This document shows, piece by piece, positions 1 through 30,764 of a stretch of 64,000 nucleotides of DNA. Source of the stretch: an uncultured Candidatus Saccharibacteria bacterium. GTDB lineage: Bacteria; Patescibacteriota; Minisyncoccia; UBA6257; GWB1-50-10. The first letter of the stretch is position 1. Each line of letters opens with the position of its first letter. The DNA lies in NCBI GenBank assembly GCA_964449245.1, contig CAYUXY010000002.1, positions 39,463 to 103,462 of the forward strand, written 5' to 3'. The translations under genes and the position numbers were made by a program. The notes under the pieces were generated by a model. The model ran no database searches, was not told the DNA's origin, and saw only the letters and a list, made by a program, of their open reading frames with translations.

Positions 1-942
1 TTCTTTTGTCCTTTCCGTGACCGAAACAAGCATTATGTTCATAATGCCGACTCCGCCCACGACAAGAGAAACTGCCGCAACGGAAGCGAGTAAAACGGTT
101 AAAATATCGGTAATCGTCTTTATTTTATTCGCCAAATCGTCCTGCGTTTGTATATAAAAATCATCTTTCTCCGGATCGTCTATGTTGTGGTTTTCCCTAA
201 GCAGTCGCTTTATGTCTTTGGTAGTTTCCTGAACCGAATCTACCGATTCCGCCTCGACAACAATTCTGTTAAAATATCTTGTTCCGAGAATATTCTCCTG
301 TACTGACGTATACGGAGCAAAAACGGCCTTATTGAAATCAATGAATGATCCCTGCCCCTTTGGAGATACTAAACCGACTACCTTGAACTTCTGATCTTTT
401 ATTTTTATTTTTTCACCAATCGGATTAACCGATCCGAAAATTTCTTCACTTACGTCGTCTCCTATCACGGCCACCTTTGATTTTTCGTCAACGTCCGACT
501 CGGTAAAAAATTGCCCTGACGCAATCTCAAGATCAAAATTGTCTTTTATGGATTCCGTACTTCCTATGAGCATCGCATCATATGTTTCGGAATCAAAAGA
601 TGTAGTTACATATCCAAAAGTATATGGAATGACATTTACGGCCTTAGGCAAATTGGATTTTTTATTTAAATCATCAAGATCTTTTTGTTTCAGAGAATCG
701 TTAAGAAGCGTACCGGCGCTGTCAGCCGGACCTTCGGGTTCCTTACCCGGTAAAATAAAAATGTTTGAGGGCCCAAAACTCTGTATCTCGCCTATTACAA
801 GATTTTCGGCACTACGACCTATAGACATTATTGTCATAATCGAAGTAATACCTATTACAATCCCGAGCATTGTAAGCGCGGAACGGCTTTTATGAACCGA
901 TACGCCCTGAATCGCAGTTCGTATTGAATCGGTAATTTTCAT
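1..942 (-). CDS. ABC transporter permease, MacB/FtsX family (partial, C-terminus beyond window edge)
   Basis: Minus-strand translation starts MKITDSIRTAIQGVSVHKSRSALTMLGIVIGI... with ATG at 942. It has an N-terminal TM, a large periplasmic domain and a C-terminal FtsX-like TM region (VGGVGIMNIMLVSVTERTKE). It lies downstream of the ABC ATPase. No stop codon before position 1. Confidence 0.8.
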   Translation of the reverse strand, partial: MKITDSIRTAIQGVSVHKSRSALTMLGIVIGITSIMTIMSIGRSAENLVIGEIQSFGPSNIFILPGKEPEGPADSAGTLLNDSLKQKDLDDLNKKSNLPKAVNVIPYTFGYVTTSFDSETYDAMLIGSTESIKDNFDLEIASGQFFTESDVDEKSKVAVIGDDVSEEIFGSVNPIGEKIKIKDQKFKVVGLVSPKGQGSFIDFNKAVFAPYTSVQENILGTRYFNRIVVEAESVDSVQETTKDIKRLLRENHNIDDPEKDDFYIQTQDDLANKIKTITDILTVLLASVAAVSLVVGGVGIMNIMLVSVTERTKE

Positions 943-3577: not shown

Positions 3578-4921
3578 TCAGGAATTCGCGTTTTTCAAAA
3601 TTTTTCTTATTTCGGCCACAAAAGCATCTTCGGACATTTCTAATTGTGTCCTTTTTGCCACGTCTTTTATTTGAACGGTTCTCTTATTAAATTCATCAAT
3701 CCCTGCTAGCACAATGACAGAAAAACCCTTATTTAATGCGTATGCGAGCTGTCCTTTTATCGTTTTCTCATTTCCAAGATACAGTTCCGTCGAAATGCCG
3801 GACTTTCTCAAACCGGTAGCTATTTTCTGAACATACTGAACTGCGTTTTCGTCAAAATTCAAAACGATTACATCACCAAAAGGGTTCAACGCCGGAGAAA
3901 GATTGAGCGTCGAAAGCGCGGAAAACAGTCTGTCAAATCCTATCGAGAGACCGACTGATGGGATAGAAACATTACCAAAACGTTCGACAAGAGAATCATA
4001 TCTTCCACCGGAACATACACTGCCTATTTCAGGCATATTCAAAAGCGCGGTCTCAAAAACAATTCCGGTATAATATCCGAGACCGCGGGCAATTCGCAAA
4101 TCAACCGCATACGCCTTATCCGGAACTCCGGCGGATTTAATAAATGAGATTGCGGACCTAAGATCGGCAACACCGCTTACATCCGCTCCGCACGAAAGAA
4201 TGTTTTTTTCCGCAAAAGAAAGAGTATCCTCATTTGAAATCCCGGAAAAACAAACGAATTCTAAAATCTTTTCTGCCGTAGATTTTGAAATACCCTGAAT
4301 CGCGGAAAGTTCATTTTTAACTTCTTTTATTCCGCGCTTATCAAGTTTATCTATTATTCTTAAAACTGATTCGAGTTTTTTTTCTGAAAAGCCCGCGATA
4401 AACGGAAGCGCGTTCAATATTTTTCTACTGTTGATTTTAATCGTAAAATCGCCGATTGATAATGCTGAAAGCGTTTCGTATGCGAGTGTTATGATTTCAG
4501 CATCCGAGCACGGGGATGACGCGCCGACGATATCTGCATCACACTGGAGCAACTCCCTAAATCTCCCGAGTTGAGATTTCTCCGCACGCCATACTTTGCC
4601 AATCTGAAATCTTTTAAAAGGTTTTTTAATTGTTGTATATTGCGCAATAACTCGCGCAAGAGGAACGGTAAGGTCAAATCTTAGAGCAAGAACATCGTCT
4701 CCCTTTAACACGCTCGTTTTAAAAATCTGTTTTTTGAAATCCGGATCTCCTCCGATTAATATATTCATTTCTTCTATGCCGGGGGTTTCAAGCTCTCCAA
4801 AACCGAATAATTCAAAAACGCCACGTATGATATTGATCATACGCGCTCTCTTTGCCATATCTTCAGGCAAATAATCCCTAAATCCTGATGCGAGCTCAGG
4901 TTTTATTTTTTTCATCCGCAT
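3578..4921 (-). CDS. hisS: histidine--tRNA ligase
   Basis: 447 aa. N-terminal GFRDYLP motif (HisRS motif), class II aaRS core and C-terminal anticodon-binding domain. Confidence 0.9.
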   Translation of the reverse strand: MRMKKIKPELASGFRDYLPEDMAKRARMINIIRGVFELFGFGELETPGIEEMNILIGGDPDFKKQIFKTSVLKGDDVLALRFDLTVPLARVIAQYTTIKKPFKRFQIGKVWRAEKSQLGRFRELLQCDADIVGASSPCSDAEIITLAYETLSALSIGDFTIKINSRKILNALPFIAGFSEKKLESVLRIIDKLDKRGIKEVKNELSAIQGISKSTAEKILEFVCFSGISNEDTLSFAEKNILSCGADVSGVADLRSAISFIKSAGVPDKAYAVDLRIARGLGYYTGIVFETALLNMPEIGSVCSGGRYDSLVERFGNVSIPSVGLSIGFDRLFSALSTLNLSPALNPFGDVIVLNFDENAVQYVQKIATGLRKSGISTELYLGNEKTIKGQLAYALNKGFSVIVLAGIDEFNKRTVQIKDVAKRTQLEMSEDAFVAEIRKILKNANS

Positions 4922-5275: not shown

Positions 5276-5447
5276 TAAAAGTGTGTATTTGTGCGTAGGG
5301 CGACCTCTCCTCCTGCATTGTTTCCTCCCATACGATGGAAAGCCACCTACGCGAAACAGAAACAAATTTATGCTGAGAACCTACTTTATTATTATCCCAC
5401 AATTCAAAAAAAATGCAACTATGAAAGACGGCCGAACACAACCGGAT

Positions 5448-5687
5448 TTATCTTAAAAACACATTTACCCTACTGCCAGGCAAAACCTCAATTAATCCGT
5501 TTGTCGCATATATATTATCGTGTTCACCATTCTTGCCGACAATCTTAATATCCCCTTTAGACAAGAGTGCGAGATACGGGCGGTGATTGTTTAAAATCGT
5601 TATTTCGCCAACAGACGTTTTTAAATTTACCGATTCGGCATCTTTAAAAAAAGTCGGTTTGCTTAATGTATAAACATTTACAACCAT
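5448..5687 (-). CDS. atpC: F0F1 ATP synthase subunit epsilon (beta-sandwich domain only)
   Basis: 79 aa, sits at the end of the atp operon, epsilon N-terminal domain-like sequence. The C-terminal helical hairpin is absent. Confidence 0.75.
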   Translation of the reverse strand: MVVNVYTLSKPTFFKDAESVNLKTSVGEITILNNHRPYLALLSKGDIKIVGKNGEHDNIYATNGLIEVLPGSRVNVFLR

Positions 5688-5694
5688 AATAAAT

Positions 5695-8033
<2,339 letters not shown>

Positions 8034-8040
8034 AAATATT

Positions 8041-9576
8041 TTATTCTTTTATCGTTTCTAAAAATCTTTCGATTGCGCTTTGCGCAAGCTTCTCGGTTTC
8101 TTCTGAAAAATCTCCAGAAGTGCGTATAGTCTCGAGTATGTTTGAATGAAGCTTTGAAAAATAAGTTACCAACTTTTCTTCGGTGTCTTTTAGACGTTCT
8201 ATGGCTATCTTGTCAAAATAACCGCGTAGAGCAGCATAAAAAACTATTGCCTGTTCTTCGAAAGGCATCGGAGCGCCATCTTGCTGTTTTAATATTTCGG
8301 TTATCATTTGTCCGCGAGAAATTTTACTTCTCGTGGATTCATCAAGATCGGAAGAAAATTGGACAAACGCCTGCAATTCTCTGAATTGCGCGAGCTCTAA
8401 TCTTAGTTTTCCCGCAATTTTTTTGATTGCTTTTGTCTGCGCGGCGGAACCGACTCTTGAAACCGAGAGTCCTGCGTTGATTGCCGGACGAATACCCTGA
8501 TAGAAAAAATCGGATTCCAAATATACCTGCCCATCGGTGATTGAAATGACGTTTGTTGGTATGTATGCGGACACATCACCGAGCTGTGTTTCAATAATCG
8601 GAAGAGCGGTTAAAGACCCGCCTCCTTTCTCTTCGCTCAACTTTGCAGACCGCTCCAAAAGACGTGAGTGCAGATAGAAAACATCGCCAGGAAACGCTTC
8701 GCGTCCCGGCGGACGGCGGAGCAAGAGAGATATTTGACGATACGCGGAAGCGTGTTTTGTAAGATCGTCGTATACAATAAGGGCATCCATTCCTTTTTCC
8801 ATGAAATATTCTCCCATAGCGCATCCGCTGTACGGAGCAAAAAACCAAAGCGATGCCGGATCAGACGACGCGGCCGATACAACTATTGTGTATTTCATCG
8901 CTCCCTCCGCCTCAAGCATACGCACAGCCTTAGCGATGTTTGCCTGCTTTTGACCTATCGCGACATAAATACATATAGGAGTTCTCCGTGTCGAATCTTT
9001 CTGTTGATTGATGATGGTATCAAGCGCAATAGCGGTTTTACCGGTTTGCCTGTCTCCAATAATAAGCTCTCTCTGTCCGCGTCCTATCGGGATCATAGAA
9101 TCAATGGCCTTGATTCCCGTATGAAGCGGAGTATTTACGGACTCTCTGGACAAAATTCCCTGAGCGCGTTTTTCAACAAAACCAAATGACGGAGTTTGCC
9201 CATCTTTGAAAATCGGCCCCTTGCCATCTATTGGCTCCCCTAACGGATTAACCACGCGTCCTATCAATGCCTCGCCAACGGGCACAGAAAGAACTTTACC
9301 GAGTCCGGTAACAACGTTGCCCGGCTTAATTTTCGCAAAATCACCGAGAACAATTGCGCCTATTGCATACTCTTCGAGGTTCGATGCGACAGCAAAAACC
9401 GGATCGGAGTCTGTTTCTATTTTCAACATTTCTTGGCTGACAACTCCGGACAAACCGGTTATTTTTACAACTCCATCAGCGACCTCAATAACCTCGCCGG
9501 CTTCTTTATGAACCGGGGTTTCATTTTCAAAATTGGCAATCTGTTTTTTGAGTTTTTCTATTATTTCGTAAGACAT
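8041..9576 (-). CDS. atpA: F0F1 ATP synthase subunit alpha
   Basis: 511 aa, Walker A GDRQTGKT, alpha-subunit signature. Confidence 0.95.
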
Positions 9577-28179: not shown

Positions 28180-28228
28180 CAAAAAATAAAAACCCGCACT
28201 TTTTATTATATGTGCGGGTTTTTATTAA
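28180..28228 (-). terminator. rho-independent terminator downstream of 16S rRNA
   Basis: aaacccgcac-(loop)-gtgcgggttt hairpin with a flanking U-run on the minus strand. Confidence 0.55.
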
Positions 28229-28557
28229 AAGAAACTTTTTAGCTGCCCCAATTTCACCGGTGTTTAAAAAGATCCGGCAACTTTTTTTGGTACCGTGCTT
28301 GCGCACGGTATTACAAACCGCTGAAAGTTATCCGCCATTTGAAAATAGATTTCCAAATAAAAAGCGGATTGCTTTCGGCGATGTGTAATCGACTAAATTA
28401 ATTAATCCACGAACAGCTTCCGCTACCCGTGCCTTGTTACGACTTCGTCCGTGTCACCGAGCTTAGGCTGAACCCCTGTTGGAGTTTTCACCCACTCCCG
28501 GCTCCCCTGACGTGACGGGCGGTGAGTACAGGACTCGAGAACGTATTCACCGCGGCG

Positions 28558-28593
<36 letters not shown>

Positions 28594-28835
28594 AGGGCGA
28601 GTTGCAGCCCTCAATCCGAACTGGGGCGGTTTTTGATGGGATTAGCTCCGTCTTACGACTTGGCAACCCATTGTTTCCGCCATTGTAGCATGTGTGTAGC
28701 CCAGGGCGTCAAAGGGCCATGCTGATTTGACGTCGTCCTCGCCTTCCTCCGTCTATAAGACGGCAGTATCCCGTGACACATATAACACGGGAGAAGGGTT
28801 GCGCTCGTTACCCCACTTAAGGGAACACCTCACGG

Positions 28836-28866
<31 letters not shown>

Positions 28867-29121
28867 CCCGCCGTCCTTGCGGACAACAATCCTTTCGGAC
28901 TGTCTTCGTCGGGATTTCAAGCCCTGGTGAGGTGTCTCGTTTACCATCGAATTAAACCACATGCCCCACCGCTTGTGCGAGTCCCCGTCTATTCCTTTGA
29001 GTTTTAAGCTTGCGCTCGTACTTCCCAGGCGGCAGATTTAACGCGTTAGCTACGCCACCCCGAGGGTCGATACTCGAGACAGCTAATCTGCATCGTTTAG
29101 GGCGTGGACTACAAGGGTATC

Positions 29122-29765
29122 TACAATTTTGTTACTGCATAACAAAATTGCAATTTCTAATTTTGAATTTCGAAACTAATCGAAATAAAAATCTAATAAT
29201 TGCAAGCTCTGTTATGGGATGAAATATTTCTATTCATCTCTCTATGTCGCCATAGAGTTCGGCCTATATCTTCTCATCATAATGACGAGTCTGGCGTATA
29301 GTCTCTGAGGCTCCAAATTTACTATAGAAAATTATTCTTGAATCATTGTATAGACGATTCGAAGAATTTCTCAATTTTGATCTCATCGATTGCTTATCAT
29401 TGCTTCTATACAAGATCATTGCTTGATCGATTGATCAATTTTCCTATCAACATAATAAAATTGTTGCCTGCTGATTGTCTGCACCGAAAAGATTTTCACT
29501 CAACAATGAGTACTCTCGGATTCTCAGATTTTCCAGCATATAGCCAGATTATCCCCCGGACGACTTTCCGGAGGGGACTAATGCTCAATGGTACCCTTCC
29601 ACTCCGCGTATTCTTCAATACGCGAGACAATACATTTTTCAAGAAGCTCTCGGAAGTGAAAAAGATTGGTCTTTTGTAAAACAAAAGTTTTTCACTGAGA
29701 GTGCAAACCCGATTTTCCGCTGGAGAAAATCGAGGTTGGTTCTTGAAAATGAATTATCGAGCAAG
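29122..29765 (-). other. ~640-nt intervening sequence inside 16S (between GGATTAGA and GATACCC), ORF-less and highly structured
   Basis: Conserved 16S sequence is contiguous once this block is removed. No homing-endonuclease ORF. Multiple local hairpins. Boundaries are ambiguous by 2 nt. Confidence 0.7.
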
Positions 29766-30335
29766 TCTAATCCTTTTTGCTCCCCACGCTTTCGCGCCTC
29801 AGGGTCAGGAACGTCCCAGCAGAATGCCTTCGCCTTTGGTGTTCCGCACGATATCAACGGATTCCACCCCTACACCGTGCGTTCCATCTGCCTCTAACGC
29901 CCTCTAGTATGATAGTTTCCACGGCAGTTTCGGAGTTGAGCCCCGAGATTTAACCGCAGACTTATCATGCCCCCTACGCGCCCTTTACGCCCAATAAATC
30001 CGGATAACGCTTGTGGCCTTCGTATTACCGCGGCTGCTGGCACGAAGTTTGCAGCCACTTATTCCCGCCGTACTATCAGTCTTGCGACTTTCTCCGGCGG
30101 AAAAGTAGTTTACACACCTAAATGCTTCATCCTACACGCGGCGTCGCTCCATCAGGCTTTCGCCCATTGTGGAATATTCTCGACTGCTGCCTCCCGTAGG
30201 AGTAGGAACCGTATCTCAGTTTCCTCGCTGGGGAACAGGCTCTCACCTCCCCTACCGGTCGTAGTCTTGGTAGGCCATTACCCTACCAACTAACTGATCG
30301 GACCTAAGCCACTCCCAAAGCAACTTGCGTCTTTA

Positions 30336-30432
30336 CCCATCTCCAGTTCACTGAAAACAATTTCCTAAATACAAAGTTTGTAATATTAACATTCTTTGTT
30401 CAAAAAAATGTACTCAGTGAACTGGGGATGGG
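30336..30432 (-). repeat. 97-nt structured hairpin element in 16S V2 helix (copy A)
   Basis: cccatctccagttcactg ... cagtgaactggggatggg. Identical to copy B except for one compensatory base pair. Confidence 0.85.
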
Positions 30433-30515
30433 ACCATCGGGAATTAGTTCGCCTTTCGGCGAATTATGCCCGACTCTGGGGTATGTACTAAGGTGTTACT
30501 AGCTCGTTCGCCACT

Positions 30516-30612
30516 CCCAGCTCCAGTTCACTGAAAACAATTTCCTAAATACAAAGTTTGTAATATTAACATTCTTTGTTCAAAAAAATGTACTCAGTGA
30601 ACTGGGGCTGGG
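30516..30612 (-). repeat. 97-nt structured hairpin element in 16S V1 helix (copy B)
   Basis: cccagctccagttcactg ... cagtgaactggggctggg. Identical interior to copy A. Confidence 0.85.
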
Positions 30613-30764
30613 CGTTCGACTTGCATGCCTTATCCACGCCGCCAGCGTTCATCCTGGACCAGGATCAAATCCTCAAAAAAACAAATTGGGACAACTAAAA
30701 AATTTCTTTATTTTTTCGCTGTTTTAACTATTAAATTGACAAAAAACTTTCCTTTTTCACAGCA

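Follow-up and report, generated by a model that had tools for sequence, protein, structure and literature searches.

One AT-rich hairpin in two helices of a single 16S rRNA gene: a lineage-private duplication in a Jorgensenbacteria-like CPR bacterium

The 64-kb stretch of DNA analysed here, referred to as the window, contains a 16S rRNA gene that raises the question of how two of its helices have come to carry the same long hairpin. A repeat search of the window has found a 97-nt direct repeat, with copy A at 30336-30432 and copy B at 30516-30612, in which 95 of 97 positions are identical; it is returned as one direct-repeat family at these exact bounds, scored as 98% identical. The first-pass annotation had described two near-identical 97-nt hairpins in the V1 and V2 helices of one 16S gene, and the repeat search together with an Rfam alignment of the gene has borne this out. 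The T/G change in the 5' arm and the matching A/C change in the 3' arm, also described there, have proved to be the sole differences: plus-strand position 5 is T (30340) in copy A and G (30520) in copy B, position 93 is A (30428) in copy A and C (30608) in copy B, the two positions are partners within the predicted stem, and the 87-nt interior between them is identical. A 34-nt core matches nothing but the two copies in the 64 kb (0.00 matches expected from shuffles), and a stem 11-mer is restricted within the window to the four hairpin arms. Between the copies lie 83 nt of native, clade-conserved 16S spacer (h7-h9; 30433-30515, minus strand), which hold the anchor used below for fetching relatives. 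As this spacer is not duplicated, a 180-nt tandem duplication has been ruled out.

The host gene occupies 28395-30680 on the minus strand (2286 nt; Rfam RF00177, 1329.6 bits, model positions 1-1533). It exceeds the Rfam model by about 750 nt on account of three insertions, apart from which it is full-length and collinear in the Rfam alignment. Relative to the bacterial model, copy B shows as 75 nt inserted into the tip of h6 (V1) and copy A as 76 nt inserted into the tip of h10 (V2), each copy occupying the whole helix, beyond the tip alone. On the minus strand, copy A thus makes up all of h10 (RNA flanks GAUGGU and UAAAG) and copy B all of h6 (RNA flanks GUCGAACG and AGUGGCG), with pair 5/93 being U-A in the former and G-C in the latter in the RNA sense. 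The third insertion, 649 nt long and situated in the loop of h24 (the 790 loop; 29117-29765, minus strand), is unrelated in sequence to the hairpins and contains a group I intron (Rfam match 29240-29629, 65 bits); no Pfam match has been found for the ORFs inside it. The gene is enclosed by a leader-trailer stem, whose leader arm lies at 30683-30709 (minus strand; 27 nt, 89% complementary) and whose trailer arm lies at 28228-28254 (minus strand), 139 nt past the 16S 3' end. This 27-nt stem looks like an RNase III processing stem, and an equivalent one is present in the relative L052. Just past the trailer arm, a perfect 15-bp inverted repeat (AATAAAAACCCGCAC / GTGCGGGTTTTTATT, 28185-28226) is likely a bidirectional terminator between the 16S gene and a response-regulator gene.

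Folding, a check proposed along with the first-pass annotation, predicts on the rRNA strand a single continuous rod of 39 bp for each copy at about −46 kcal/mol with z near −9 (copy A, −45.9 kcal/mol, z −8.8; copy B, −47.9 kcal/mol, z −9.6). The stems had been called perfectly paired, of which the stable 39-bp rod stands, but not the perfection: the basal duplex consists of 6 + 13 bp split by one C·A mismatch at bp 7, which would be G·U on the plus strand, and the rod also has three 1×1 or 2×2 internal loops and a 2-nt bulge. With respect to composition, the element has a GC content of 36% and its interior one of 20%, as compared with 54.5% in the 16S core. No ORF has been found within the hairpin element, and no Rfam family or intron has been found on the hairpins at gathering thresholds or at E≤10, the sole Rfam matches there being generic miRNA-precursor models (15-39 bits against thresholds of 63-150). 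In the absence of any match to an intron covariance model, a group I or group II identity of the hairpins has been ruled out. An antisense function on the plus strand, considered in view of the G·U pair at bp 7 there, has been dropped: the rRNA gene around the element is highly transcribed, and the fold is slightly better on the rRNA strand.

Regarding the host, the neighbouring L25 protein finds its best named match in Candidatus Jorgensenbacteria (63% identity), and the order of the genes for L31, L25, an SLT-domain protein, a response regulator and type IV pilus components is shared with Parcubacteria contigs. Based on both, the organism is a Parcubacteria/Jorgensenbacteria-like bacterium of the ultra-small CPR. 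Neither this affiliation nor the group I intron in the gene had been noted at first pass. A 23S gene linked to this 16S has not been found in the 64-kb window by Rfam. In Jorgensenbacteria genomes of the RIFCSP type (L006-L011, ~5300-9360), the slot beside L31 is filled by 23S-5S, with 23S genes of 3.7-4.1 kb that contain inserts, and the same L31-adjacent slot holds 16S in the window, in L059 and in L005; the differing contents of this slot imply that members of this group have unlinked rRNA genes, which have undergone rearrangement.

Relatives have been gathered in two ways, 41 loci by a metagenome scan for a 16S anchor that is specific to the clade and located between h6 and h10, and closer ones through the flanking L25 and response-regulator genes. 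By BLAST and by a covariance model built on the two copies, the element is absent from the 41 clade 16S loci as well as from L005 and L059; against the fetched loci, BLAST at a word size of 7 has returned only chance matches of 11-17 nt, and the covariance model only chance hairpins (E 0.09-0.8). The search of related genomes that had been suggested at first pass has thereby come back empty in about 50 related 16S loci, including two that are about 94% identical. The nearest 16S genes are those of L059 (GCA_020059585.1) at 93.7% and of L056/L005 at 93.9%, identities that leave the branching order of the three undecided. In both L059 (CUC-GCAA-GAG) and L005 (CUC-GAAA-GAG), h10 is a minimal hairpin of 10 nt. 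Their h6, on the other hand, is an AT-rich rod of 173-176 nt (L005, locus ~160-335, minus strand; L059, 8254-8426) that is homologous between the two and unrelated to the element of the window. The arms of this rod are made of CCAAAT / CCTAAAT repeats paired with ATTTGG / ATTTAGG repeats, and it looks like a product of slippage or template switching, not of point mutation. In the wider clade, at least 15 loci have an h10 hairpin of 10-11 nt, unrelated h10 expansions of 30-100 nt are seen in a few lineages, and h6 is a general hotspot for inserts. Very long h6 inserts in L017, L038 and L039 end, upstream of AGTGGCG, in a conserved peptide-like stretch (…LGGFSKKLK), which suggests that V1 holds a protein-coding insert in these loci.

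Judged from these comparisons, the element is young and private to its lineage, and the h10 copy is clearly derived, because h10 is the minimal 10-nt hairpin in the nearest relatives. The group I intron is likewise lacking in L059 and L056, and on the basis of this absence it is as young as the hairpins; since neither is present in relatives of about 94% identity, the gain of both element and intron falls within about the last 6% of 16S divergence. Copying from h6 to h10 is the more parsimonious direction, as all close relatives have an expanded h6 and none an expanded h10. The CCC...GGG base of the element resembles the native h10 stems of several relatives, a likeness that makes the reverse direction, from h10 to h6, possible. 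The relatives lack the sequence and the nearest h10 is minimal, in agreement with the earlier view that the two hairpins have a common origin and go beyond ordinary V-region divergence.

How the second site was reached is constrained by the flanks, which have nothing in common between copies A and B beyond CCC/GGG. For this reason the copying must have been non-homologous; it would have occurred at the DNA level, through template switching during replication or ectopic conversion, and most likely from h6 to h10. The identity of the 87-nt interior would then be due to the youth of the event and/or to gene conversion between the copies. Against this copying step stands that no flank homology or microhomology beyond CCC/GGG accounts for the event. 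A mobile palindromic element (MITE-, REP- or RPE-like, or a horizontally spreading intervening sequence, IVS) that has inserted twice independently into 16S hairpin loops would also place the same module at two sites, and a hairpin inherently has terminal inverted repeats; moreover, IVSs are thought to spread horizontally, and related ones have been reported at different rRNA sites (PMC3335488, PMC11270868), while a second lineage, L028/L030, has its own module at two other sites. We nevertheless consider such an element quite improbable. No further copies have been found in the 64-kb window or in 464 kb of related DNA; a stem-plus-gap pattern of the element, run against 185,579 GTDB species representatives, has matched only once, and neither this pattern nor a 31-nt interior pattern has found anything in IMG/VR. 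The one GTDB match, a palindrome in a coding-like region of Pseudomonas, is unrelated to the element and due to chance. Neither a target-site duplication (the flanks CGAACG...AGTGGC of copy B and GATGGT...TAAAGA of copy A are without direct repeat) nor an associated transposase or homing endonuclease has been found, and both copies replace a whole helix. The first-pass term mobile is accordingly not supported in the sense of a dispersed element, in view of the lack of copies in the 64 kb, the related DNA, the GTDB representatives and IMG/VR.

The second copy might also be a product of assembly, created by a repeat-induced or strain-chimeric misjoin and absent from the actual molecule. Metagenomic assembly is difficult for rRNA genes, the Logan contigs of this organism break at 16S position ~35, and exact-protein look-ups of the spurious ORFs inside the 16S, together with the Logan contigs, have yielded no independent assembly that runs across both copies. 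In the window, however, the two copies can be told apart 5 nt in from either end, by variants that are complementary between the arms of each copy, and both copies continue into the unique 16S sequence expected at their site, which a collapse or a misjoin at a shared k-mer would not yield; the 16S is otherwise full-length and collinear, and an analogous duplication recurs in two separate metagenome assemblies (L028 and L030). Going by the sequence, an artefact is unlikely, and we give it very little credence. The Logan contigs of the same organism (L001, L002 and L053, from SRR8925738 / SRR8925737), in which L25 and the response regulator are identical, end at that 16S position or include only the last 41 nt of the gene, so that their 16S is unassembled. 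The duplication in the window is real, recent and private to its lineage, and the hairpin is neither an intron nor a carrier of an ORF nor dispersed in the DNA searched.

The recurrence in L028/L030, an unrelated Parcubacteria lineage, has been noticed when the 16S region of every relative was compared with itself. Both carry a 101-nt AT-rich module, 92% identical between its copies, in the h17 (V3) and V6 inserts of one 16S (4787-4887 and 5591-5691 in L028, and the same in L030), and each of the two inserts folds as a long hairpin. The two loci come from separate metagenomes and differ at one of 2065 nt. Their module is unrelated to the element of the window and has found no orthologues in the other fetched loci, being private to its lineage. 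A third AT-rich insert, of about 160 nt, is situated in h6 of L028/L030. Internal repeats were also flagged in L052 and L033, where they are pilin-gene paralogues and tRNAs and no rRNA inserts. In about 50 Parcubacteria 16S loci, a hairpin insert has accordingly been duplicated within its gene at least twice, and, given this second lineage, the earlier wording of a duplicating structured module is a fair description. Paralogous copies of an insert within one gene have not been described in the survey of CPR rRNA insertions (PMC11270868).

What the element is, and what becomes of it in the RNA, is a further question. On balance we find it probable that the single 16S gene of this Jorgensenbacteria-like member of the CPR carries an AT-rich rod of the IVS type, duplicated within the gene at the DNA level, and that RNase III would excise the rod. 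RNase III-excised IVSs are known from helices 25 and 45 of the 23S rRNA in Salmonella, Yersinia and Campylobacter and from the 16S rRNA of Helicobacter and Campylobacter. The AT-rich 16S IVSs that have been described have stems of 21-24 bp, and the 16S and 23S IVSs of one species are homologous (PMC3335488); in H. fennelliae the 16S IVS lies near position 175 and has a stretch in common with the 23S IVS of the same species (PMC3335488). Such stems of 21-24 bp are RNase III sites (PMC3335488, PMC8708148). Like bacterial rRNA IVSs in general, the element of the window is AT-rich, free of ORFs, located at the tip of a variable surface helix, closed by an end stem of about 20 bp and sporadic among relatives. 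In detail, it replaces the apical part of variable surface helices (h6 and h10, where relatives are short), its ends pair over about 20 bp (6 and 13 bp around one C·A) within 39 bp overall, and it is AT-rich relative to the rRNA, with sporadic occurrence among close relatives and turnover of its sequence. It differs from bacterial IVSs in being shorter (97 nt including the whole helix) and in its presence as an entire module, 98% identical between copies, in two helices that are separated by 83 nt of a single gene. Indeed, against an IVS, the inserts of 75-76 nt with respect to the model are shorter than most characterised ones.

If the rods are excised, the near-perfect 20-bp basal duplex would probably be cut by RNase III, which would also cut the 27-bp leader-trailer stem, and removal of the rods would leave the 16S in three base-paired pieces. 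RNase III-type excision is favoured by the IVS hallmarks, by the leader-trailer stem, by the RNase III of a relative and by the published removal of CPR inserts. The related Parcubacterium L039 encodes a full-length RNase III with a dsRBD. Against excision, no RNase III motif has been found in the 64-kb window. Two further features speak against it: the 5' fragments left by cuts at the two sites would be unusually small, at about 70 and 90 nt, and h6 has remained a long rod throughout the three genus-level lineages although its sequence has turned over, which could mean that the rod is retained and useful.

This persistence also speaks for twin expansion segments, in which both rods would stay in the mature 16S as two identical helices of about 39 bp, extending side by side at h6 and h10 out of the foot of the 30S body, and might be neutral or serve as a platform for protein, ribosome-ribosome or host contacts. 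The helices h6 and h10 are adjacent and surface-exposed (PMC9297842), pairing is maintained over the full rod and not merely at its base, and functional ribosomes tolerate unprocessed IVSs according to a statement in PMC8708148 that cites Gregory 1996. Retention is in our estimate a serious rival, if the less likely one, as the CPR rRNA insertions examined so far have been reported missing from transcripts (PMC11270868, PMC9297842), the interior with its 20% GC and the complete turnover of sequence among 94%-identical relatives argue against a function at the sequence level, and long, near-perfect dsRNA is a default substrate of RNase III, an enzyme that the clade has.

The single pair by which the copies differ had been taken at first pass as an indication of selection on RNA structure. 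Two random substitutions would land on one pair and preserve pairing with a chance of about 0.003, and the change between G-C and U-A is a double transversion without wobble intermediate. Orthologous copies have not been found among the relatives, which confines covariation to this one pair. During replication, template switching in hairpins can alter both sides of a pair in one event (PMC8794818). As only one pair is concerned, no wobble intermediate is available and a one-step template switch can produce the same change, the paired difference is weak evidence of selection on structure and does not by itself establish it; it may be a one-step template-switch mutation, and it could also be a remnant of native stems. 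An explicit structure evaluation has also covered a cross-copy fold, a 5' arm being paired there with the 3' arm from the opposite copy. With the actual sequences, the local fold of two hairpins (−118.5) is 10.6 kcal/mol better than the cross-copy fold (−107.9), whereas with identical copies the two would be isoenergetic (local −120.5, cross-copy −121.3). In these models the G-C/U-A difference leaves the local pairing of each copy undisturbed and penalises the cross-copy misfold by about 11 kcal/mol, and it may have been selected for that. Taken further, hairpin inserts in CPR rRNA genes might be self-propagating "helix-tip" modules that copy between rRNA hairpin loops, perhaps through an RNA intermediate or by template switches from one hairpin to another nearby, with neither intron core nor endonuclease, the one-base-pair difference being selected against cross-pairing of the rods and misfolding of the 5' domain; we regard this as speculative and unlikely. 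With template-switch (quasipalindrome) mutations, by which RNA hairpins are created and repaired, the locus has in common that perfect inverted repeats and apparently compensatory double changes in rRNA stems can arise in one step (Monttinen and Loytynoja 2022, PMC8794818), and by analogy template switching could explain both the G-C/U-A difference and the rod-like inserts. Template switching, however, copies the reverse complement over short distances, and alone leaves a direct 97-nt copy 180 nt away unexplained.

Among known systems, the insertion sequences of CPR rRNA genes (Brown 2015; Tsurumaki 2022, 2024) come from the same host group and also occur several to one single-copy rRNA gene. 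Insertions of at least 100 bp have been found in 48% of CPR 16S genes and are mostly intron-like with homing endonucleases, leaving a residue of short, ORF-less and uncharacterised inserts, which have been suggested to be IVSs of the RNase III type (PMC11270868); insertions of this group are removed from the transcripts (PMC11270868, PMC9297842). The gene in the window fits this pattern in carrying a typical group I intron, and the survey likewise contains short ORF-less inserts in less-conserved regions. The hairpins differ from it in being neither intron-like nor accompanied by a homing endonuclease, and with 75/76 nt they fall below the 100-bp threshold of the survey, for which the 649-nt insert qualifies. 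Moreover, CPR ribosomes usually have shortened versions of h6, h10 and h17, which are close neighbours on the surface (PMC9297842), whereas h6 and h10 are expanded here.

The expansion segments of eukaryotes and Asgard archaea are, like the element, helical extensions at the tips of variable surface helices. They are retained, usually GC-rich or of simple sequence, and conserved in position over large clades, whereas the element belongs to one lineage only. Different expansion segments of one gene can reportedly have simple-sequence motifs in common, which Hancock and Dover are said to have described as molecular coevolution. Small palindromic mobile elements are also found inside functional genes, such as the Rickettsia palindromic elements, MITEs and mitochondrial GC clusters, and these families are multi-copy and dispersed across the genome. 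The element resembles them as a hairpin module of about 100 nt that is tolerated in an essential gene at surface-exposed positions, and differs in that no dispersal has been detected in the DNA and databases searched.

That CPR 16S genes contain inserts is known; new are the same module in two helices and an independent parallel case. The two cases point to a simple copy mechanism for the spread of inserts. For the origin and spread of IVSs and expansion segments, horizontal transfer is usually invoked without a mechanism, and this locus and the second lineage provide concrete, datable examples of intragenic propagation in a single-copy essential gene. Helix-tip modules, if they are real, would add a separate way for expansion segments or IVSs to originate and spread. 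From a practical point of view, V1-V2 inserts lengthen amplicons and a 97-nt repeat breaks assemblies, which adds to the known under-detection of CPR in 16S surveys. As a minor observation, a 492-aa pilin-like protein in L061 (5172-6650; N_methyl, Laminin_G_3) also matches PF05635 (23S_rRNA_IVP), a domain that is normally encoded inside rRNA intervening sequences.
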